This document shows, piece by piece, positions 104 through 10,620 of a stretch of DNA of 24,000 bases. Position numbers and translations under genes: made by a program. Each line of letters begins with the position of its first letter. The stretch's first letter is position 1. Source of the stretch: an uncultured Verrucomicrobiae bacterium (lineage in GTDB: Bacteria > Verrucomicrobiota > Verrucomicrobiia > Palsa-1439); assembly GCA_963766065.1 (NCBI GenBank), contig CAVYAC010000061.1, forward strand, positions 74,090-98,089, read 5' to 3'. Below the pieces are notes generated by a model. It was not told where the DNA came from. It saw only the letters and a list, made by a program, of their open reading frames with translations, and searched no databases.

Positions 104-493
104 ATGAAATCCAGCCGACTCGAAGCGTTCAGCGATGGCGTGATCGCGATCATCATCACCATCATGGTGCTGGAGTTGAAAGTCCCGCACGCCACCGCAC
201 TTGCCGACCTGAAACCGTTGTTGCCGGTGTTCCTGAGTTACGTGTTGAGCTTCCTCTACGTCGGCATCTACTGGAACAACCACCACCACCTGCTCCATTC
301 CACCAAGCACGTCACCGGCGGCATCCTCTGGGCCAACCTCCACCTGCTGTTCTGGCTGTCGCTCTTTCCGTTCACCACCGCCTGGATGGGTGAGAACCAT
401 CTCGCCCCCACACCCGCCGCCGTCTACGTCTTCGTCGCCCTCCTCTGGCTCATCCCCGACCGCCGCATCGAACGCGTGCTGGTGGACCAATAG
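104..493 (+). CDS. DUF1211/TMEM175-family K+ channel-like membrane protein, unusually short (129 aa)
   Basis: ORF ATG 104 to TAG 491-493. The N-terminus RLEAFSDGVIAIIITIMVLEL is the DUF1211/TMEM175 signature. About four hydrophobic helices follow and the protein ends IPDRRIERVLVDQ. It is shorter than the roughly 190-250 aa I expect for this family. Confidence 0.75.
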   Translation: MKSSRLEAFSDGVIAIIITIMVLELKVPHATALADLKPLLPVFLSYVLSFLYVGIYWNNHHHLLHSTKHVTGGILWANLHLLFWLSLFPFTTAWMGENHLAPTPAAVYVFVALLWLIPDRRIERVLVDQ

Positions 494-578
494 TGCTATC
501 GCTCAGCGCTGAATAGATGCGACTTCCGCGCTTTTGGTTTGTTTCGTGCGGCAACGAGCGGTACGTTTTGCGACTACC

Positions 579-1109
579 ATGAAGACTTCCGGTGAACTCG
601 AACACGCAGCCGCTCAACATGTCGCCGCTCTGATGGCGGCGTCCGCGCGCACGGCCCCCAAAACACGCGGCATTGACAACATCAAGATCATCGCGATCGA
701 CGACGAGCCAACCCGGCGAAAGCTCGTCTCCACAATGCGTGAGATCGCCCAGAAGGAAGACCGTCCCAGCATCGCCCGCGACGCCGGCAACATCGAAAAT
801 TCCCCCGCCGTCGTCGTCATCGGCGTTGAATCCAACACCGCCGGTTTGAACTGCGGGTTCTGCGGCCACCTATCGTGCGAGGCGCTCGAAAAAACCAGGG
901 GCGTTTGCGCGTTCAACTCAATCGACCTCGGCATTGCCACCGCGTCCGCGGCGGAAATCGCCGGCCGGTTACATTTCGACAACCGTGTGATGTTCTCCAT
1001 CGGCCGCGCCTGCCTCGATTTGAAACTGTTCGGACCCAAGGTCAACCAGGCGCTTGGGATTCCGTTGAGCGTCACGGGCAAAAATCCGTTCTTCGACCGT
1101 CAACCGTGA
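579..1109 (+). CDS. DUF2148 ferredoxin-domain (Fe-S) protein
   Basis: The ORF track gives 534..1109. I prefer the ATG at 579 (MKTSGELEH) because 534 lies in the T-rich tract just after the upstream stop. TAPKTRGIDN, GLNCGFCGHLSCEA, GVCAFNSIDLGIA and GKNPFFDR match my memory of DUF2148 proteins. Confidence 0.8.
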   Translation: MKTSGELEHAAAQHVAALMAASARTAPKTRGIDNIKIIAIDDEPTRRKLVSTMREIAQKEDRPSIARDAGNIENSPAVVVIGVESNTAGLNCGFCGHLSCEALEKTRGVCAFNSIDLGIATASAAEIAGRLHFDNRVMFSIGRACLDLKLFGPKVNQALGIPLSVTGKNPFFDRQP

Positions 1110-1110
1110 T

Positions 1111-1842
1111 ATGCCCCATCGACTGCTCACTCTTGACGAGGTCGCCGATTATCTGCACCTCACATCCGCTGACATCGAGCAGCGGGTGAAAGACCGCGAG
1201 ATCCCCTTCGAAAAGCGCGGCGAACGGGTCGTCTTTCGCAAACGCGAAATTGACCAGTGGGCCTCGCAGCGGATCCTCGGATTTACTCCCCAGCGGCTGG
1301 CGGCTTACCATCACAAATCCACGCACCAAATACGAAATGTTCTCTCCCAGGCCGCCATTCTGCCGGACATGCTCGCCGCTGGTGCCATCGCCTCGGCCAT
1401 GTCGTCGAAGACCAAAGCGTCCATCCTGCGTGATTTGGTCGCCCTCGCGGAGAAAACCGGCCACCTGAACGATCCCCAAGCGCTGCTGGCGAGCCTGGAG
1501 GCGCGCGAGGAGTTATGCTCCACGGCCATGCCGGGCGGCTTCGCGCTGCCGCACCCGCGCTTCCATGAAGCTTACCTGTTTGAGACCTCATTTCTTGTCG
1601 TCGGACGGCCGATTCAGGAAATCCATTTCGGCGCGCCCGACGGTGAACCAACGCGTCTGTTCTTCCTGGTTTGCTGCCAGGATGACCGGCTGCACTTGCA
1701 TACACTGGCCCGGCTCTGCCTTATCGCGCAGAAATCTAAAATCATCGACCAACTCCTCGCCGCGCCCGATCCCCAAACCATCCGCGACTCCCTCATCGCC
1801 GTCGAAGAACAACTCCTCGCCGACCCAAAAACCGGCCCATAG
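1111..1842 (+). CDS. Helix-turn-helix (excisionase/MerR-type) + PTS EIIA type-2 (PtsN-like) domain regulator
   Basis: ATG at 1111, one nt after the DUF2148 TGA (1107-1109). The N-terminus LLTLDEVADYLHLTSADIEQRVKDREIPFEKRGERVVFRKREIDQW is an HTH. The C-terminal ~150 aa (SKTKASILRDLV, PGGFALPHPR, RLFFLVCC) resemble the EIIA-2 fold. Confidence 0.75.
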   Translation: MPHRLLTLDEVADYLHLTSADIEQRVKDREIPFEKRGERVVFRKREIDQWASQRILGFTPQRLAAYHHKSTHQIRNVLSQAAILPDMLAAGAIASAMSSKTKASILRDLVALAEKTGHLNDPQALLASLEAREELCSTAMPGGFALPHPRFHEAYLFETSFLVVGRPIQEIHFGAPDGEPTRLFFLVCCQDDRLHLHTLARLCLIAQKSKIIDQLLAAPDPQTIRDSLIAVEEQLLADPKTGP

Positions 1843-1866
1843 CGGCTCCATCACGATTTTTCGCCG

Positions 1867-3453
1867 TTGACAGTTGGGCGTTGGGAAAGAGTATTCTGTC
1901 CAGTGGTGAACTCCCGTCACGACAGAATCCTCTTCTGGGGCTGTTTCATCGCTCTCATCACCACAAGTTACGCGTTCATCAGCCGCATGATTTTGTGCGG
2001 CGGCCAGTTCGTCACCGACTTCGGCCTCGACAAGGTGGCCGTCGGCGAACTCCAGGGCGCGGGCATCTGGCCGTTCGGCGTCAGCATCATTCTCTTCAGT
2101 CTGTTCATCGACCGCGTCGGCTACAAGGTCGCGATGATCTTCTCGTTCGTCAGTTATCTCGCCTATGCGGCGCTGGCAATGATGGCGTACAGTTCGATTC
2201 ACGGCTTGACCGGCGACGCGCTGGTTGCCGCGCAGAAACACGGCTATCAACTGCTCTATTGGGGCAGCATCATTCTTGGCTTGGGCAATGGCAGCGTCGA
2301 GTCCTACATCAACCCGATCGTGGCCACGATGTTCAACACGGACAAAACCAAATGGCTTAATCGCCTCCATGCCGGCTGGCCGGGCGGACTGGTTCTCGGT
2401 GGACTGTGCACGATTGCCCTGGCCAATAATCCGGACTGGCGCATCACGCTGGGGCTGATTCTGATTCCCGCGTTCATTTTCTTTTTCATTCTCGTCAGTT
2501 TGAAATTCCCCAAAAGCGAGCGTGAGCAGGCCGGCGTCAGTTATCGGGACATGCTCCGGGAACTCGGCGTGTTTGGCGCGCTCGTCGGGTTTGGACTGGT
2601 GTTCGCCCAACTCGGTCAGGTTTTCGGCTGGAGCAGCAGTGTGGTTTGGGGCCTCACTGGTGCGGTCGTCGCCATCTTCGCCGTCGTGACCAAATCCTTT
2701 GGTCGGCTCATTCTCGCCTTTCTGATCGTCATCATGATGCCGCAGGCGACGACCGAACTGGGCACGGACGGCTGGATCACCTCGCTGATGCAAACCCCCA
2801 TGCAGGCCGCCGGACACAATCCCGCCTGGGTGCTGGTTTACACGTCCGCGATCATGACGGTTCTGCGCTTTTCCGCCGGGCCGCTGATCCACAAACTTTC
2901 CCCGCTCGGACTGCTGGCGACCTGCTCGGCGCTCGCTGCGATCGGACTCGCCGCGCTTTCCCACACCAGCGGCGCGGGCATCCTCGCCATTTTTGCCGCC
3001 GCGACACTCTACGGTGTCGGCAAAACCTTCTTCTGGCCGACCATCCTCGGCCTCACCTCGGAACAATGCCCCAAAGGCGGCGCGCTCACCCTGAACGCGA
3101 TGGGCGGCATCGGCATGCTGGCCGTGGGCATTCTCGGCGCGCCGTTCATCGGCTACTTGCAGGAATCCTCCGCCACGAAACAACTGTCATCTAGCCCCGC
3201 GCTCTATCAAACGGTGACCATCGAGAAAACCTATTTGCTTGGCGCCTACAAAGCCATCGACCCCGTAAAAGCGGCTGCCGTCACCGACAACAGTTCCAGG
3301 GAACAAATCAAATCCGCCACAACAACCGGCCAGTTCAGCGCCCTCGGCAAAATGGCCCTTTTCCCCCTCTTCATGCTGGCCTGTTACCTCGCCCTGATCG
3401 CCTACTTCAAATCCCGCGGCGGCTACCGCCCCGTCCGCCTCGATTCAAAATAG
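1867..3453 (+). CDS. MFS-type polytopic transporter
   Basis: 1.6 kb ORF with about 12 hydrophobic segments and glycine-rich loops (GSIILGLGNGSVESYINP, GWPGGLVLGGL). Start uncertain: TTG 1867 in the ORF track, GTG 1903 or 1906 also possible. Stop TAG 3451-3453. The 531-aa antisense ORF is treated as a shadow. Confidence 0.7.
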   Translation: MTVGRWERVFCPVVNSRHDRILFWGCFIALITTSYAFISRMILCGGQFVTDFGLDKVAVGELQGAGIWPFGVSIILFSLFIDRVGYKVAMIFSFVSYLAYAALAMMAYSSIHGLTGDALVAAQKHGYQLLYWGSIILGLGNGSVESYINPIVATMFNTDKTKWLNRLHAGWPGGLVLGGLCTIALANNPDWRITLGLILIPAFIFFFILVSLKFPKSEREQAGVSYRDMLRELGVFGALVGFGLVFAQLGQVFGWSSSVVWGLTGAVVAIFAVVTKSFGRLILAFLIVIMMPQATTELGTDGWITSLMQTPMQAAGHNPAWVLVYTSAIMTVLRFSAGPLIHKLSPLGLLATCSALAAIGLAALSHTSGAGILAIFAAATLYGVGKTFFWPTILGLTSEQCPKGGALTLNAMGGIGMLAVGILGAPFIGYLQESSATKQLSSSPALYQTVTIEKTYLLGAYKAIDPVKAAAVTDNSSREQIKSATTTGQFSALGKMALFPLFMLACYLALIAYFKSRGGYRPVRLDSK

Positions 3454-3693
3454 CTCCAGCGAGATCCCCGATGGCGCAGCTTCAGGTGCGTTTGTGGCAT
3501 GCATTGGCTGGCCGACGCATCAAACGTGCCCTCGTAAGTTGGGAGCGAGTGTGAGCTAGGGCAACTCAGTTAAATAGCCGAGTTTCACGTTAGCAATTGA
3601 GCGAGGTCCAGGCCCACTCGATTGAAAATTTGTTTCTCGAAAACGGCGAATGGAACTGACACAATCCTCGTACATACCACGTGTGCAACATCT

Positions 3694-4869
3694 ATGAGCG
3701 CAGACCAATATAGATACCCACGACGCCCACTGACAGCTGCCCAAAAGAAACGACTCATCGACGAGATGGGCAACAAATGTGCCATTTGCGGAGCCACAGG
3801 CGTTCCCTTAGAGTTCGATTATATTATCCCACTTCACCTCGGAGGATCACCCGAAACTTCTAACATCCGATTGCTATGCCCAAACTGTCATGCGTTTGGA
3901 GCCCAGTCGCCCCTCGAATCTGAATTTGTCCAGTATTTGGGATTGCTCTTATCGAACCACCCCCAATTCGAGTTGGTCCAAGTGGAGCCCATCTTGGGAA
4001 AGGACACAAAGTGGCGCCCGGATTTATTCGTCAAACGACTTGTCGGAAACAAACCGAAGTCTGTCCTGATAGAATGCAAATCCAAATCTGCATTTTCCCC
4101 CGGTGATTTGCGGAGAACCGCCGAGCAAGTGTTGATCTATCGACATGCGTTGAATCCGGATGTAGTTGTTCTCGCTTTCCCCGGAAGACTATTGGCCCAA
4201 GATGCGCAACTACTAGCAGAAAGAGGTATTGAGGTATGGGATATAGATTATATCTCAAGAACTTTTGCTGCCCAGATTGATAAAACCAAGCACCCATACT
4301 TCCAGCGATTGTTTCAGGCGGTACTGCCAAGCGCATCGCCTCAACCTGAGAAGTTGTTGATTACGCAGCTACAAAACTGCAAGCCAGGTCGCGACCAGTG
4401 GCCAGTATATCAGAAATTTGTCGGTAAAGTCATAGAGCAGTTGTTTTGTCCACCTTTATCGATGCCGATTTCTCAATCCGAAGATTTGTCCGGCGTGAAT
4501 CGGCGAGACTTTATTGTTCCGAACTATGCTGACAGCGGCTTCTGGCGGTTCGTCAGGGAAACGTATAGCGCGGATTACGTCGTGGTAGATGCGAAGAACT
4601 CCGCAGAGCCAGCCCAAAAGGATGACGCGTTGCAGTTGGCGAATTATCTAAAACCTCATGGGGCAGGTTTATTCGGCTTAATAGTTTGCCGGAAAGGTGC
4701 AGACGAAGGGTGTCTTCATACGCTTCGTGAACATTGGGTTGCTTACAGAAAGCTCATCGTTGTCCTTGATGATCACGACATCGAGAATATGCTTCTCTCA
4801 CGCTCTGCGGGTGGTAAACCCGAAGATCTAGTTGGCGAGAAGATCCAAGGGTTTCGGCTGTCTATGTAG
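3694..4869 (+). CDS. Orphan multi-nuclease protein: HNH-like Zn ribbon + two PD-(D/E)xK (Mrr/restriction-endonuclease-like) domains
   Basis: The ORF is open from TTG 3622 and the first ATG is at 3694. Motifs, numbered from 3622: C53-A-I-C56 and C86-P-N-C-H90 with LEFDYIIPLHLGG between them; P-D134-LFV then E151-C-K153; RR-D296-FIV then VVV-D323-A-K325. The gene is clearly AT-richer than its flanks. Confidence 0.7.
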   Translation: MSADQYRYPRRPLTAAQKKRLIDEMGNKCAICGATGVPLEFDYIIPLHLGGSPETSNIRLLCPNCHAFGAQSPLESEFVQYLGLLLSNHPQFELVQVEPILGKDTKWRPDLFVKRLVGNKPKSVLIECKSKSAFSPGDLRRTAEQVLIYRHALNPDVVVLAFPGRLLAQDAQLLAERGIEVWDIDYISRTFAAQIDKTKHPYFQRLFQAVLPSASPQPEKLLITQLQNCKPGRDQWPVYQKFVGKVIEQLFCPPLSMPISQSEDLSGVNRRDFIVPNYADSGFWRFVRETYSADYVVVDAKNSAEPAQKDDALQLANYLKPHGAGLFGLIVCRKGADEGCLHTLREHWVAYRKLIVVLDDHDIENMLLSRSAGGKPEDLVGEKIQGFRLSM

Positions 4870-4977
4870 TCTGAATTACGCCGTACTGCAAGCCTCCGCC
4901 TCAGCAATCCTATGCTCGCAGGGATATTTCGGAACGCACTAGTGATTTTCATCCGAGGAGCATGCGGGCCGCTCACG

Positions 4978-6105
4978 CTACGGAAGCGGGCGAGCGTGCA
5001 CGGGAAGATCAATCCGTTTCCCGGTCGCGGCGGACTCGCGCGCGGCATCGAGAATCTCCTGCGCGGTCATGTTCACGTCCAACGACGAAAGGTCGCCGGT
5101 GGGTTGTATCTCCCCGCGCACAACTGCTACCAGATAGGAAATCGGGTCGGCCTCCTGGCCGGTCAACGGCGGGATGGTCGTCTGGGTTTCATCTTCGAGA
5201 TGGTCGCCCTTTAGCACACGCAACAAATCCCTCCGCGGCACCAGCACGTAACCGGTCTGACCGTAAATTTCCATGTCCTTTCGGTTGTACGGCCAGTTCC
5301 AGGACGCCTGGATGATTCCCTGGGCTTTGGGATACGTCACCACAATCGTCGCTTCATCGTCCACTTTCGGATAGACATTGGGCTTGATGTGTTGGGTCAC
5401 CGCGAACACCGACGTCGGCCGCTCGCCGTGCATGAGCCAGGTGATCAGGTCGGCACCGTAACAACCAAAATCCGTCAGCGCCCCGCCGCCATCCAGCACC
5501 GGGTCCGTGAGCCACTTCAAGAACTCCGGCGGACAGCCAATTTCTTTTGGCCCTTGATGTCCGTCATGAACCACGAACTTGCGTAGGTCCCCGATCGCAT
5601 GCTCGCCGCAGACCAATTTGTACGCCGCGTGGTTGGCGGGATACCAGGTCGTCTCGTAATTGACAAGCAGATGAATGCCGCCCTTTTTGGCGGCGGCAGC
5701 CATCGCGCGGGCGTGCTCCATGTTCACCGCCAACGGCTTTTCCATCATCACATGTATGCCGCGCGACGCGCACGCTTCCACGACGCGCGCGTGATCGAAC
5801 GTGCTCGTAAACAGCGCTACCGCCTGCACGTTGGTCTTGGCCAGCAAATCCTCCAGGCTGCTGAAGAACAGATTCGTGTTGAGTTGCCAGCGCTGGACAG
5901 CCTGCGCCACCAGCGCCTGATCCGGCTCCACGACGCCGACCACCTGCACGTCCCGATTCGTGATCGCCTGCGGCAGGAAACCCCGCACATGGGTGTGGAC
6001 GAGCCCAATAATCGCAATACGCACCGGTGGTTTGTTGCTCTCCTCAGAAAACGCCGGCAGTGCGCTTAAGCCGAGTAAATAAAGAGCGAGAAGCAAGTTC
6101 TTCAT
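4978..6105 (-). CDS. Gfo/Idh/MocA family oxidoreductase with N-terminal signal peptide
   Basis: ATG at 6105 gives MKNLLLALYLLGLSALPAFSEE (Sec-type signal), then a Rossmann-like RIAIIGLVHTHV and the family EKP motif (HVMMEKPLA). The ORF-track start at 6144 would overlap thiC. Stop TAG 4978-4980. Confidence 0.85.
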   Translation of the reverse strand: MKNLLLALYLLGLSALPAFSEESNKPPVRIAIIGLVHTHVRGFLPQAITNRDVQVVGVVEPDQALVAQAVQRWQLNTNLFFSSLEDLLAKTNVQAVALFTSTFDHARVVEACASRGIHVMMEKPLAVNMEHARAMAAAAKKGGIHLLVNYETTWYPANHAAYKLVCGEHAIGDLRKFVVHDGHQGPKEIGCPPEFLKWLTDPVLDGGGALTDFGCYGADLITWLMHGERPTSVFAVTQHIKPNVYPKVDDEATIVVTYPKAQGIIQASWNWPYNRKDMEIYGQTGYVLVPRRDLLRVLKGDHLEDETQTTIPPLTGQEADPISYLVAVVRGEIQPTGDLSSLDVNMTAQEILDAARESAATGKRIDLPVHARPLP

Positions 6106-6106
6106 G

Positions 6107-7909
<1,803 letters not shown>

Positions 7910-7911
7910 CT

Positions 7912-7946
7912 AAAACAAAAAACCGACCCTGAAATCCAGGCGTCGG
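7912..7946 (-). terminator. Intrinsic terminator acting as the TPP-riboswitch expression platform
   Basis: Minus-strand RNA CCGAC-G-CCUG-GAUUU-CAGG-GUCGG forms a 9-bp stem with one bulge. It is followed by UUUUUUGUUUU and sits between the aptamer and the thiC SD. Confidence 0.7.
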
Positions 7947-7949
7947 CTT

Positions 7950-8046
7950 CGCTACGTGTTTCCCTACGCCAGCATTACCTGGATCAGGTTCAGTGGGTCT
8001 CCCGCCTCGTGCGGAATCTCAGCCTCGAAAGGCTCCCCAAACGAAT
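7950..8046 (-). promoter_or_regulatory. TPP (THI-box) riboswitch aptamer upstream of thiC
   Basis: The minus strand reads UUGGGGAGCCUUUCGAGGCUGAGAUUCCGCACGAGGCGGGAGACCCACUGAACCUGAUCCAGGUAAUGCUGGCGUAGGGAAAC. It contains the conserved CUGAGA, ACCC..UGAACCUGAUC..GGUAAUGC..GGCGUAGGGA elements. Confidence 0.9.
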
Positions 8047-8061
8047 CTGCCTATGAAATTG

Positions 8062-8379
8062 TCAATTGAACGAACGTCCGCACCCACAGCTCGAATGCGC
8101 ATTGGGATTCTTGATGCGGAACCCCGAACCCTGCAAGCTGTCCTGATAGTCGATCTCGCTGCCCTTCAGGAAATTCATGCTCATCGGATCGACAACCACC
8201 TCGACGCCATCCTGCGCAATCACCTCGTCATCGGGCTTCTTGTCATCGAACGCCATGCCGTATTCCATGCCCGAACAGCCCCCGGTCTCAATATACACGC
8301 GCAACGGTTTCGCCTGCGCGCCCGGATTGGCGAGCAGTGTCTTGATATGCTTCGTTGCGTTTTCCGTGAGTGTAATCAT
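8062..8379 (-). CDS. Iron-sulfur cluster insertion/assembly accessory protein (HesB/IscA/ErpA family)
   Basis: ATG at 8379 gives MITLTENATKHIKTLL, then GGCSGMEYGMAFD and a C-terminal SCGCGRSF, the three-Cys A-type carrier signature. The ORF-track start at 8439 adds 20 non-conserved residues. Confidence 0.85.
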   Translation of the reverse strand: MITLTENATKHIKTLLANPGAQAKPLRVYIETGGCSGMEYGMAFDDKKPDDEVIAQDGVEVVVDPMSMNFLKGSEIDYQDSLQGSGFRIKNPNAHSSCGCGRSFN

Positions 8380-8445
8380 GTCGTCACCACCAAACTGCAC
8401 CTCAACTCTACCAAGCCCGCGCCACGCTGTCAAACCCACCTCCGC

Positions 8446-9300
8446 TCATTCGATCACCACCCCGCCATACCCCACCACGCGCGAGAAATCGCCATTCACG
8501 TCGCCGCTGGTGCGGTATTCGAGAACTTCGGCGTGCCTGGCCCCAAGTCCCAAGGCCGCCGTCAGCACGATATACGTGGGCGCAACTCCACACATGGAAA
8601 CCTCGGCATTGATGACCTGGTCCATCAGCGCGTCAGCGTCCAACTTCACAATCGCGTCCAACACGAGTTTGTCCTTTCCGTGAGATGTTTCCTGATCTTC
8701 ATAGTGGTTGAGGTCCGTGAACGCGATGAGCAACACGGGCTTGCCATATTCGTGCACGCATTGCGCCAGAGCACCGCCGATCTCTTTAAGTTCGCGACGC
8801 CCGCCGCTTTCGGGCCAGTGGCCACCGATCAGAAGCGGGACAACGTGAACGTTCGGATTCGCCCGCAAGAGCATTGGCATCTGGACTTCCAACGAATGTT
8901 CCTGTGTGTGGGCCCGGGGATCCTCAGCCAGCAATTCGCAATGGTCGAGAAGCTCCAACGCCAACGGCTCGGCCACCGGCACATTCCCCACGGGTGTATG
9001 CCAGGCGCCCGAACTATACACGGCGTAGCGGCTGCCGGCATTGCGATGATTGGGGCCGACCAGTATCACTTGGTCGGGAATTTCCACGCTGGAATAAACA
9101 AGCCCTGCTGTGTGGCCGGAATACATCCAGCCCGCGTGTGGACAAACCACCGCGATGGCTTTGCGCCTGGGGATGGCGGAGGGAATCAACGCGTCGAGCG
9201 TCGTACCGATCTCCGACGCTTCCGCCGGGTAGAACTCCCCGGCCACTGCTGGTTGACGAATCACGGTATTCCCTTTCCGGCCACCCGTCGCTTCATCCAT
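8446..9300 (-). CDS. amrB: AmmeMemoRadiSam system protein B (Memo-like)
   Basis: 284-aa ORF with PAVAGEFYP, VVCPHAGWMYSG, QEHSLEVQMPML and VVGYGGVV, typical of Memo/AmrB. Its ATG at 9300 shares one base with the bioA stop. Confidence 0.85.
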   Translation of the reverse strand: MDEATGGRKGNTVIRQPAVAGEFYPAEASEIGTTLDALIPSAIPRRKAIAVVCPHAGWMYSGHTAGLVYSSVEIPDQVILVGPNHRNAGSRYAVYSSGAWHTPVGNVPVAEPLALELLDHCELLAEDPRAHTQEHSLEVQMPMLLRANPNVHVVPLLIGGHWPESGGRRELKEIGGALAQCVHEYGKPVLLIAFTDLNHYEDQETSHGKDKLVLDAIVKLDADALMDQVINAEVSMCGVAPTYIVLTAALGLGARHAEVLEYRTSGDVNGDFSRVVGYGGVVIE

Positions 9301-10620
9301 TATGGCACCGTTTGGACCGATTCCGCAAGCACACTCAACACACGCTCCAACTGCTCGCCGTTAATGCAGTACGGCGGCATCAGCACGATGGTGTTGCCAA
9401 TGGGCCGGGTGAGCACGCCTCGTCAACGCATTTCCGCACAGACCTTGATGCCAATCCTGTCGGTCAACGGAAACGGCTTCTTCGCGCCAACATCTTGAGA
9501 CAATTCGATGGCGCCGATCATCCCGATGTGCCGCACGTCTCCGACGTGCGGAAGTTGTCTCATCAATTCCAAGCCGGCGCGCAGGTGTTCACACTTTGGT
9601 TGGAGCGCCTTCAACGTTTGCTCTTCTTCGAACACTTGCAAATTTCCCAACGCCGCCGCGCAGCCGAGCTGGTTGCCTGTGTAACTATGGCCATGGAAGA
9701 ACGTCTTGAACTCGCTGTAGTCGCCAAGAAATGCCCGGAAAATTTCCTCGGTCGTCAGCGTCACCGCCAGCGGCAGATAACCACCGGTGAGGCCCTTCGC
9801 CACCGCCATTAGGTCGGGCGTCACGCCTTCCTGCTCGCAGGCGAACATCGTTCCCGTGCGCCCGAAGCCGGTCATTACTTCATCGGCAATCAACAGCGCG
9901 CCCGGCTCGGTGCATAGACGCCGCAATTCGCCCAGCAGTCCGCGCCTCCACAGCCGCATCCCGGCCGCGCCTTCAACGAGTGGCTCGATCACAACCGCCG
10001 CAATCGAGTCCTTATGCCCGTGAAACACCCTCTTCAAATTCGATAGATCGCTTACCCGAATCACGTCAAACAATAGAGGTTTGAACGCCGCGTGAAACAA
10101 ATCAATCCCCCCCCACGCTGACCGCACCCAGCGTGTCGCCGTGGTACGCATCGGCAAACGCCACAAACTTCGTGCGCTGCGGCTGTTTCCGGTGCCGCCA
10201 GTATTGCAGCGCCATTTTGATGGACACCTCCATCGCGGTCGAGCCGTCATCGGAATAGAACACCCGCGTCAGTCCCCGCGGCGCAATCGCCACCAGTTTT
10301 TCCGCCAGTTCAATGGCAGGCCCATTCGAGAGGCCAAGGAATGACGAATGTGCGATCCTGTCGAGCTGATCCTTGATGGCCTGTGTAATCTTCGGGTGCT
10401 GATGACCATGGAGATTCGTCCAGATCGAGGAATTCGCATCGATATACTCGCGCCCGTTCACGTCCCGCAGAATTGCGCCCTGCCCCGACTCAATGATGAC
10501 GGGCTCTTCTCCCATCCAGTCCTTCATCTGCGTGAACGGATGCCAGAGGTGGCGATGGTCCTTGTCAGCGAGTGAGTCCACCAAACTCCCCCAGGAATTG
10601 TTCGATATCGCGTGGCTCAT
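9300..10620 (-). pseudogene. bioA: Adenosylmethionine-8-amino-7-oxononanoate aminotransferase BioA, reading frame disrupted as sequenced (frameshift + in-frame TGA)
   Basis: The N-terminal fragment 10102..10620 ends YHGDTLGAVSVGGD*. The C-terminal homology (GGIDLFHAAFKPLLF to CAEMR) is in another frame (ORF 9423..10250). After the TGA at 9423-9425 the same frame continues RGVLTRPIGNTIVLMPPYCINGEQLERVL to TAA 9300-9302. The frames switch in a G8 run (C8 on + strand, 10107-10114). Confidence 0.85.

Follow-up and report, generated by a model that had tools for sequence, protein, structure and literature searches.

The 24,000-nucleotide stretch of DNA analysed here (the window; positions 74,090 to 98,089 of contig CAVYAC010000061.1, assembly GCA_963766065.1, from an uncultured Verrucomicrobiae bacterium) contains a foreign islet with a single, horizontally acquired gene, the product of which is a nuclease composed of an HNH module (module i), an Mrr-type PD-ExK module (module ii) and a FokI/MspJI-type PD-DxK module (module iii). 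On balance, the gene probably encodes a solitary DNA endonuclease that resides in a hotspot for anti-phage cargo and acts as a single-protein defence against phage or plasmid DNA. The nuclease belongs to a widespread family found across many phyla rather than being a one-off, and it is an uncharacterised form of the single-gene, methyltransferase-less defence nucleases, not a categorically new system.

An earlier reading made from the letters of the window alone (the sequence-only reading) had described one gene between an MFS gene and a convergent oxidoreductase gene; the open reading frame (ORF) on which it relied (3622..4869 on the forward strand, 415 amino acids (aa), beginning at TTG 3622) exists, and its islet borders lie within 17 bp of the breakpoints of DNA homology with the closest relative, L013. 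The supported start of the gene is ATG 3694 (methionine 25 of the 415-aa ORF), because the database twin of the window protein (P0001, 100% identical) is 391 aa long and the N-termini of homologues align from this methionine. The gene is called as 391 aa on four contigs, and an intact, identical ORF is present on five. Residues are numbered below according to the 391-aa protein, and adding 24 gives the numbering of the sequence-only reading. As that reading had also noted, the islet holds no methyltransferase, ATPase or mobility gene; searches at the islet additionally found neither a tRNA nor a pair of repeats, direct or inverted, that brackets it, only short matches at chance level. Neither a promoter-like site on the forward strand nor a terminator was found in the DNA flanking the nuclease gene, and an Rfam scan of the upstream intergenic region gave no match. 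The rest of the window lacks a DNA methyltransferase, and its remaining genes have housekeeping functions (aminotransferases, amidohydrolase, RNase Y, MgsA, PheT). Feature coordinates and the contents of the corresponding slot in related genomes are collected in Table 1.

Table 1. Features of the nuclease islet (window coordinates) and contents of the TMEM175-oxidoreductase slot in this and related genomes.
Feature	Position	Strand	Basis or content
Islet	3471..4992	.	blastn breaks versus L013 at 3470/3471 and 4992/4993; lowest GC in window
Upstream intergenic DNA, presumed promoter and 5' untranslated region	3454..3693	+	GC 0.525; no element recognised
Nuclease gene, 391 aa + stop	3694..4869	+	P0001 length and identity, homologue N-termini, contig gene calls
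Module i, HNH / beta-beta-alpha-Me zinc module, aa 29-66	3778..3891	+	Pfam HNH match; EcoKMcrA best PDB match
Module ii, Mrr_cat-type PD-ExK, aa 72-200	3907..4293	+	Mrr_cat/HSDR_N_2 in homologues, triad, secondary structure
Module ii triad, D110, E127, K129	4021-4023, 4072-4074, 4078-4080	+	D134/E151/K153 of the sequence-only reading
Module iii, FokI/MspJI-like PD-DxK, aa 208-391	4315..4866	+	PDC-M36A match, model, Foldseek, conservation
Module iii triad, D272, D299, K301	4507-4509, 4588-4590, 4594-4596	+	D296/D323/K325 of the sequence-only reading
Spacer up to convergent oxidoreductase stop	4870..4977	.	No terminator-like hairpin
Slot, this window			DUF2148, PTS_EIIA/HTH, MFS, then nuclease
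Slot, L013	2.3 kb		TPR (tetratricopeptide repeat) protein and 317-aa ORF (weak EVE, LmuA-like nuclease segment)
Slot, L012			DUF2971 gene with a full-length match to PADLOC candidate PDC-S31 (E 9e-35)
Slot, L015			Empty; TMEM175 abuts oxidoreductase, window 483-4962 is extra versus L015

The foreign origin of the gene is evident from its composition. Its guanine-plus-cytosine (GC) fraction is 0.489, whereas 15 other window genes average 0.594±0.010 (z = -10), and the same fraction at third codon positions (GC3) is 0.505 against 0.721±0.055 (z = -3.9). Wherever a gene-length stretch of the 24 kb has GC <= 0.50, it overlaps the nuclease gene, which is the sole compositional outlier. The five hand counts of GC made in the sequence-only reading proved exact on recount (0.50, 0.383, 0.483, 0.683 and 0.683), and the description of the islet as AT-rich holds relative to the window, although the gene itself is about 49% GC. 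Homologues in four other genomes are likewise GC-poorer than their hosts, which fits a gene moving between genomes.

The same conclusion emerges from the four closest syntenic Verrucomicrobiia genomes (L012-L015), in which thiC (92-99% aa identity) and the oxidoreductase (79-89%) are kept in order and no homologue of the nuclease is found. In L013, DNA homology ends at window position 3470 and restarts at 4993. Far from being conserved at this locus with native composition, the gene is absent from all four relatives and compositionally foreign, in agreement with the horizontal acquisition proposed earlier. The content of the slot differs genome by genome (Table 1), which places the nuclease gene in a nested variable hotspot with defence-type cargo in sister genomes. 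The DUF2148, PTS_EIIA/HTH (helix-turn-helix) and MFS genes of the window have native composition (GC3 0.72-0.77), unlike the nuclease gene, so that the hotspot is nested and mixed in age; L013 has the MFS gene and lacks the two genes upstream of it. The slot of L013 (L013:11192-13158, reverse strand) encodes the 317-aa ORF, with a sub-threshold EVE match (E 0.004), a GGRIDVVV...YYEIK motif and the LmuA-like segment (E 4e-7), after which comes the TPR protein of 338 aa; the two genes may together form a nuclease system that senses modification. The DUF2971 protein of L012 (L012:11253-12221, forward strand; 322 aa) covers the whole PDC-S31 profile.

The nearest homologue in a named assembly (P0003, 51% identity; GCA_016307145.1, L005:8001-12034) is convergent to thiC, from which it is separated by an 850-bp gap; there is no oxidoreductase, and every other flank is different. 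This arrangement could represent a recurrent insertion near the 3' end of thiC, or a long-standing presence with later losses. It also brought vertical inheritance at this locus into consideration, which was rejected as the principal account: the gene is missing from all four closer relatives, and its flanks are not the same. A search of 72,556 plasmids found no full-length homologue, a search of 50,697 phage records found no homologue, and 2.9 million viral contigs contained only three full-length matches; the plasmid and phage records gave no indication that the window copy came from a plasmid or phage.

The three motifs and spacings given in the sequence-only reading (CAIC, 29 residues, CPNCH; P-D134, 16 residues, E151-C-K153; D296, 26 residues, D323-A-K325) are correct, and they exceed chance resemblance, given the HNH score, the Mrr_cat matches of homologues and the modelled fold of module iii described below. 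In module iii they correspond to D272, 26 residues and D299-A-K301, a D...D-x-K site as in FokI. D272, D299, K301, N302 and Q314 are each present in all of 120 full-length homologues that are 42-52% identical to the window protein (the conservation sample), and in a wider set of 151 sequences the triad residues are found in 150, 147 and 151, respectively, with N302 within the same range of 147-151. The structural model of module iii alone (predicted local distance difference test (pLDDT) 92, predicted template-modelling score (pTM) 0.87) folds like the FokI/MspJI nuclease domain, in keeping with the second PD-(D/E)xK core that had been proposed, and its Foldseek matches include MspJI (E 6e-4), the FokI cleavage domain (template-modelling (TM) score 0.54-0.58), N.BspD6I (0.57) and EcoT38I. 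The model also superposes on the N-domain of Rpb5, and against viral structures Foldseek returned nothing beyond folds of the Rpb5 type and weak matches to 'restriction endonuclease' entries. The PADLOC candidate PDC-M36A matches aa 212-367 (E 4e-17) and is found in all 36 full-length homologues that were scanned for domains; two PHROGs of unknown function match the module as well. No curated family covers module iii in a Pfam/NCBIfam scan of the window protein, weak Mrr_cat matches to it occur in a few members only, and a profile search with the module against PDB sequences found nothing.

Module ii of the window protein has no match to Pfam Mrr_cat (PF04471) at E <= 1. Across the 36 scanned homologues, Mrr_cat matches this module in 20 and HSDR_N_2 in 25, and several of the Mrr_cat matches exceed the gathering score (21 bits) and span profile positions 3-113 of 115, nearly the whole profile, in line with the Mrr-type layout noted earlier. 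Its triad (D110, 16 residues, E127-C-K129) is kept in 120, 119 and 118 of the 120 homologues, and in the wider set D is present in 133/134, E in 119/137 and K in 109/137. The predicted secondary structure is alpha-beta-beta-beta-alpha-beta (helices 75-88 and 136-153; strands 92-97, 111-117, 120-128 and 157-161). With a mean pairwise identity of 0.39, module ii is the most variable of the three (0.49 for the HNH module and 0.64 for module iii), and a profile search with it against PDB sequences gave nothing meaningful. Profile and structure searches recover a nuclease fold for module ii as well as for module iii, and the alignments show almost absolute constraint on both PD-(D/E)xK triads. A recent internal duplication as the source of the two cores was rejected because hhalign detected no significant similarity between modules ii and iii (probability 0.2).

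Module i is matched by Pfam HNH (PF01844) at 39 bits (cut-off 21.4; E 8.8e-10; aa 53-90 of the 415-aa ORF), as are all 36 scanned homologues, and the closest structure to it is the HNH domain of EcoKMcrA. The zinc ligands C29, C32, C62 and C65 are present in the window protein together with N57 and H66; the zinc cysteines are kept in 118-120 of the 120 homologues, N57 in 116, and H or N at position 66 in 112. The general-base position 43 is a tyrosine in the window protein (codon 3820-3822, FDYIIP), aligning with the catalytic HH of EcoKMcrA and the consensus AHI of the homologues. Histidine 43 is present in 88 of the 120 homologues and therefore missing in 27%, being replaced by S, Y, F, Q, A, N, R or L across several lineages. 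Judging by this substitution, the HNH of the window copy is probably inactive, and of the three nuclease modules described earlier, all of which are present as folds, probably two are active because the window HNH lacks the general-base histidine. His48, which the window protein possesses, occurs in 11 of the 32 homologues without His43 versus 4 of the 88 with it; the 11 represent only about three lineages, and a relocated catalytic histidine, with His48 substituting for His43, is possible from this pattern. An RNA-guided, IscB-type reading of the protein was rejected, the NCBIfam IscB match on the HNH part being sub-threshold (33.8 versus a cut-off of 175).

The model of the full-length protein (pLDDT 84, pTM 0.53) matches only PD-(D/E)xK nucleases and McrA, all weakly, and none of its matches is a solved structure with the same three-module architecture; a full-length phmmer search against PDB sequences gave HNH matches only. 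An exhaustive profile search with module iii retrieved 2,689 cluster representatives, 1,967 of them at E <= 1e-10 and 377 at E <= 1e-30. In the best 150 of these 2,689, module iii is without exception C-terminal; 94 of the 150 consist of modules ii and iii and have no HNH (median 328 aa, with members from Streptomyces, Kitasatospora, Sphingopyxis and others), 39 have the complete HNH+ii+iii arrangement (median 382 aa) and 17 have module iii alone. Since 94 of the 150 comprise modules ii and iii only and the module iii triad is kept in 147-151 of 151 sequences, the tandem PD-(D/E)xK pair is the core of the family, with module iii indispensable and HNH an optional accessory. Two representatives (P0272 and P0277, ~530 aa) carry an extra N-terminal domain of ~215 aa before modules ii and iii; Pfam finds no match in this extension, which was considered as a candidate reader and could be a sensor domain.

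Source records give the homologues no names other than 'HNH endonuclease', 'restriction endonuclease' or 'hypothetical protein'. The family matches of the protein amount to generic HNH names and the unpublished PDC-M36A, for module iii alone. The sequence-only reading had not recognised the domain order as a named system; no characterised family does match, although the PDC-M36A candidate covers module iii. Both PDC-M36A profiles align over a C-terminal stretch of ~150 positions only (278-430 in the profile of 457, 176-303 in that of 330), whereas their N-terminal two thirds differ; no paper mentions PDC-M36, and it has no published function.

Ten independent genomic contexts of homologues contain no recurrent neighbour, and without a conserved partner the nuclease is stand-alone, as had been suggested. 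None of the ten contains a DNA methyltransferase family; the Achromobacter context has generic class-I S-adenosylmethionine (SAM) methyltransferases 2-3 kb from the nuclease gene. Several homologues lie near mobile elements or conflict-type genes: one is beside a tyrosine recombinase (L102), one near a DDE transposase (L103), two adjoin large conflict-type ATPases or helicases (L100, L101), and one has an Mrr_cat/NA-iREase1 gene nearby (L007). In L099 (6001-8511), the homologue adjoins an integrase (Arm-DNA-bind_1 + Phage_integrase) at the end of a prophage with cI/Cro-like genes, a position that is the classic site of prophage-carried defence 'morons'. A pooled PADLOC scan of 43 neighbour genes identified MkoC (2e-287), MkoA, SoFic (7e-41), PDC-S46 (6e-275), PDC-S08 (7e-138) and a ZorD-like Mrr nuclease. 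The defence function proposed in the sequence-only reading is thereby supported as an association only (neighbours from defence islands and mobile elements, and defence candidates in the same slot of relatives). Rhizobial plasmids contain only remote relatives of module iii. One of these, on the Rhizobium leguminosarum plasmid pRLgr12_1 (L098:4680-5738), resembles modules ii-iii at 26% identity over 60% of the query and lies between hypothetical genes, after a 'GTPase-associated system GASH' protein and an AAA ATPase, which suggests that the module domain also serves as an effector in multi-gene conflict systems.

Under the favoured explanation, a defence by a horizontally acquired solitary endonuclease, the C-terminal FokI-like module iii would be the obligate cleavage engine, and the variable Mrr-like module ii would engage the target and contribute a second active site, the two PD-(D/E)xK sites in one chain nicking both strands and so producing a double-strand break. 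Mva1269I, a two-site monomeric type IIS enzyme, is a precedent for such an arrangement. Another is BsmI, also of type IIS, a monomer with two active sites (PMC11889245). The HNH of the window copy would act as a zinc-stabilised DNA-binding accessory and not as a nuclease. As there is no methyltransferase, host DNA would most likely be spared through dependence on a foreign modification, or on the structure or ends of foreign DNA, and it would be a domain with a nuclease fold, not a classical reader, that senses foreign DNA. A comparable role is found in the END nucleases (a type IIS-like nuclease with an inactive EndoIII), in which the inactive EndoIII fold is proposed to sense hypermodified DNA without a methyltransferase (PMC12191111). 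These enzymes are likewise single-gene, methyltransferase-less and located in defence islands, and their dead enzyme fold, proposed as a DNA sensor, parallels the degenerate HNH described here (PMC12191111); the window protein differs in having no EndoIII/HhH-GPD domain (no Pfam match, in the 36 homologues as well) and a different arrangement of nuclease modules.

Several points weigh against this explanation. The interdomain orientation is not confidently predicted (pTM 0.53), which makes intramolecular cutting of both strands a conjecture, and a FokI-like intermolecular dimerisation through module iii is equally possible. E or K of the module ii triad is lost in 13-20% of the wider set, and in some members module ii may be a recognition domain. 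Because His48 accompanies the loss of His43, the inactivity of the HNH in the window copy is not certain. No modification-reader domain is detected by Pfam in the window protein, the 36 homologues or 10 variant architectures. Two of the genomic contexts are plain metabolic neighbourhoods, and the PDC-M36 candidate is unpublished and unvalidated and matches over the C-terminal ~150 positions only.

A broader formulation, which we put forward tentatively and regard as rather doubtful, is that the family forms a novel class of immune nucleases, each a single polypeptide made of nuclease folds alone. A fast-evolving Mrr-like module and, in a subset, an HNH that repeatedly loses its catalytic histidine while retaining the zinc site would have been turned into sensors for features of foreign DNA, and these sensors would license a strictly conserved FokI-like cutter. 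If true, self would be discriminated from non-self with no need of a methyltransferase or a classical reader, nor of any NTPase or partner protein.

The absence of methyltransferases from the ten contexts also accords with a classical type IV enzyme, which would recognise a specific modified base (5-methylcytosine, hydroxymethylcytosine, N6-methyladenine, phosphorothioate or a hypermodification) and cut modified DNA only. McrA, Mrr and MspJI are, like the window protein, solitary, methyltransferase-less nucleases; the protein resembles McrA in its HNH with two CxxC zinc sites, Mrr in a module ii that Mrr_cat matches in homologues, and MspJI in the fold of module iii, and the PADLOC mREase_IV model matches 31 of the 36 homologues. 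However, the mREase_IV and McrA matches are restricted to the catalytic HNH part, and no SRA, EVE/PUA, YTH, winged-helix, SBD or other reader was found in the window protein or its architectural variants. The McrA N-domain, the Mrr winged helix and the SRA-like domain of MspJI are all absent; those enzymes combine a reader with a nuclease whereas the window protein combines three nuclease folds. The type IV option raised in the sequence-only reading, for which Pfam finds no modification-reader domain, is accordingly not established, and we consider it an unlikely explanation, if one with some claim to attention.

An abortive-infection or toxin effector is less probable still. Such a nuclease would be auto-inhibited (e.g., by the HNH or module ii) until an infection cue (e.g., free DNA ends) unleashed it on all DNA, including that of the host, on the model of Shedu or of Cap4/NucC-type effectors. 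Fold matches to the nuclease domains of Cap4, Can2 and Avs4, weak hidden Markov model (HMM) matches to SduA and CBASS effectors in some homologues, the Shedu-like pairing of changing N-terminal modules with a constant C-terminal nuclease, and the remote relative of module iii beside a GTPase-associated conflict system on a Rhizobium plasmid are in its favour, but the fold and HMM matches are weak (E > 1e-4), and no cyclase, STAND or CARF/SAVED sensor or signalling partner is encoded in cis or nearby. Shedu (SduA, DUF4263) is likewise a single gene with a constant C-terminal PD-(D/E)xK nuclease and variable N-terminal modules; the weak SduA match is confined to 5 of the 36 homologues (best E 6e-4), and the window protein has none.

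The fold of module iii, which resembles FokI, N.BspD6I and EcoT38I, could also belong to an orphan type II or IIS restriction endonuclease with its protective methyltransferase elsewhere in the genome. PADLOC REase_II matches 10 of the 36 homologues, and BsmI and Mva1269I likewise have two different PD-(D/E)xK centres per chain. Module iii shares the cleavage-domain fold and the D...D-x-K site of FokI and N.BspD6I, but the window protein differs from all four enzymes in its extra HNH and in having neither a methyltransferase nor a recognisable sequence-recognition domain, and it has no match to them at the sequence level. Genes for restriction endonucleases and their methyltransferases are nearly always adjacent, no DNA methyltransferase family was present in any of the ten contexts, and a single-gene islet would be unable to establish itself without its methyltransferase, all of which render this origin improbable.

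A selfish element, that is, a free-standing homing endonuclease or addiction gene spreading by cutting empty sites, would be in keeping with the foreign composition, with the HNH fold, which is common in homing endonucleases, with a weak match to the PADLOC HEase model, and with the 51%-identical homologue that also adjoins thiC in another genome. It is nevertheless very improbable, since the gene is chromosomal and free-standing, with no intron, intein or phage-genome setting, homologues are nearly absent from the viral contigs and wholly so from the phage records given above, the flanks differ entirely between loci, the islet has no border repeats, and of the catalytic centres that of the HNH is conserved least. 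Least probable of all is a housekeeping nuclease of DNA repair or recombination, or a decaying inactive remnant: both PD-(D/E)xK and HNH folds are also used in repair, EndoMS/NucS is a structural match and the HNH centre is degenerate in the window copy, but against it the gene is patchily distributed, foreign in composition and missing from sister genomes, its ORF is intact and identical on five contigs, and both PD-(D/E)xK triads are intact.

Other features of the window concern the neighbouring thiC locus. Upstream of thiC, on the reverse strand, positions 7944-8049 form a complete thiamine pyrophosphate (TPP) riboswitch (RF00059, 75 bits). The 5' end of a forward-strand ORF (7993-9498), which has no Pfam match at E <= 1e-5 and is 63-80% conserved in relatives, overlaps the riboswitch, and its start is therefore probably further downstream. 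The longest oxidoreductase ORF (from TTG 6144) overlaps the stop of thiC by 38 nucleotides (6107-6144); the database calls a gene of 375 aa where this ORF would give 388 aa, so that the start of the gene is probably internal. The thiC and oxidoreductase genes look co-transcribed.

Solitary nucleases without a methyltransferase (type IV and END enzymes) are a growing class of anti-phage defences, and the family described here, with ~2,700 cluster representatives, has a core domain that lacks a Pfam or NCBIfam model and is partially flagged through an unvalidated PADLOC candidate. The analysis also marks the interval between TMEM175 and the oxidoreductase as a hotspot of defence cargo in soil Verrucomicrobiia. 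If validated, the nuclease would be a compact, 390-aa, single-gene defence in which recognition and cleavage both derive from nuclease folds, and the natural series of module iii alone, modules ii and iii, and HNH with modules ii and iii (with an active or a degenerate HNH) would lend itself to the study of how nuclease domains turn into DNA sensors.

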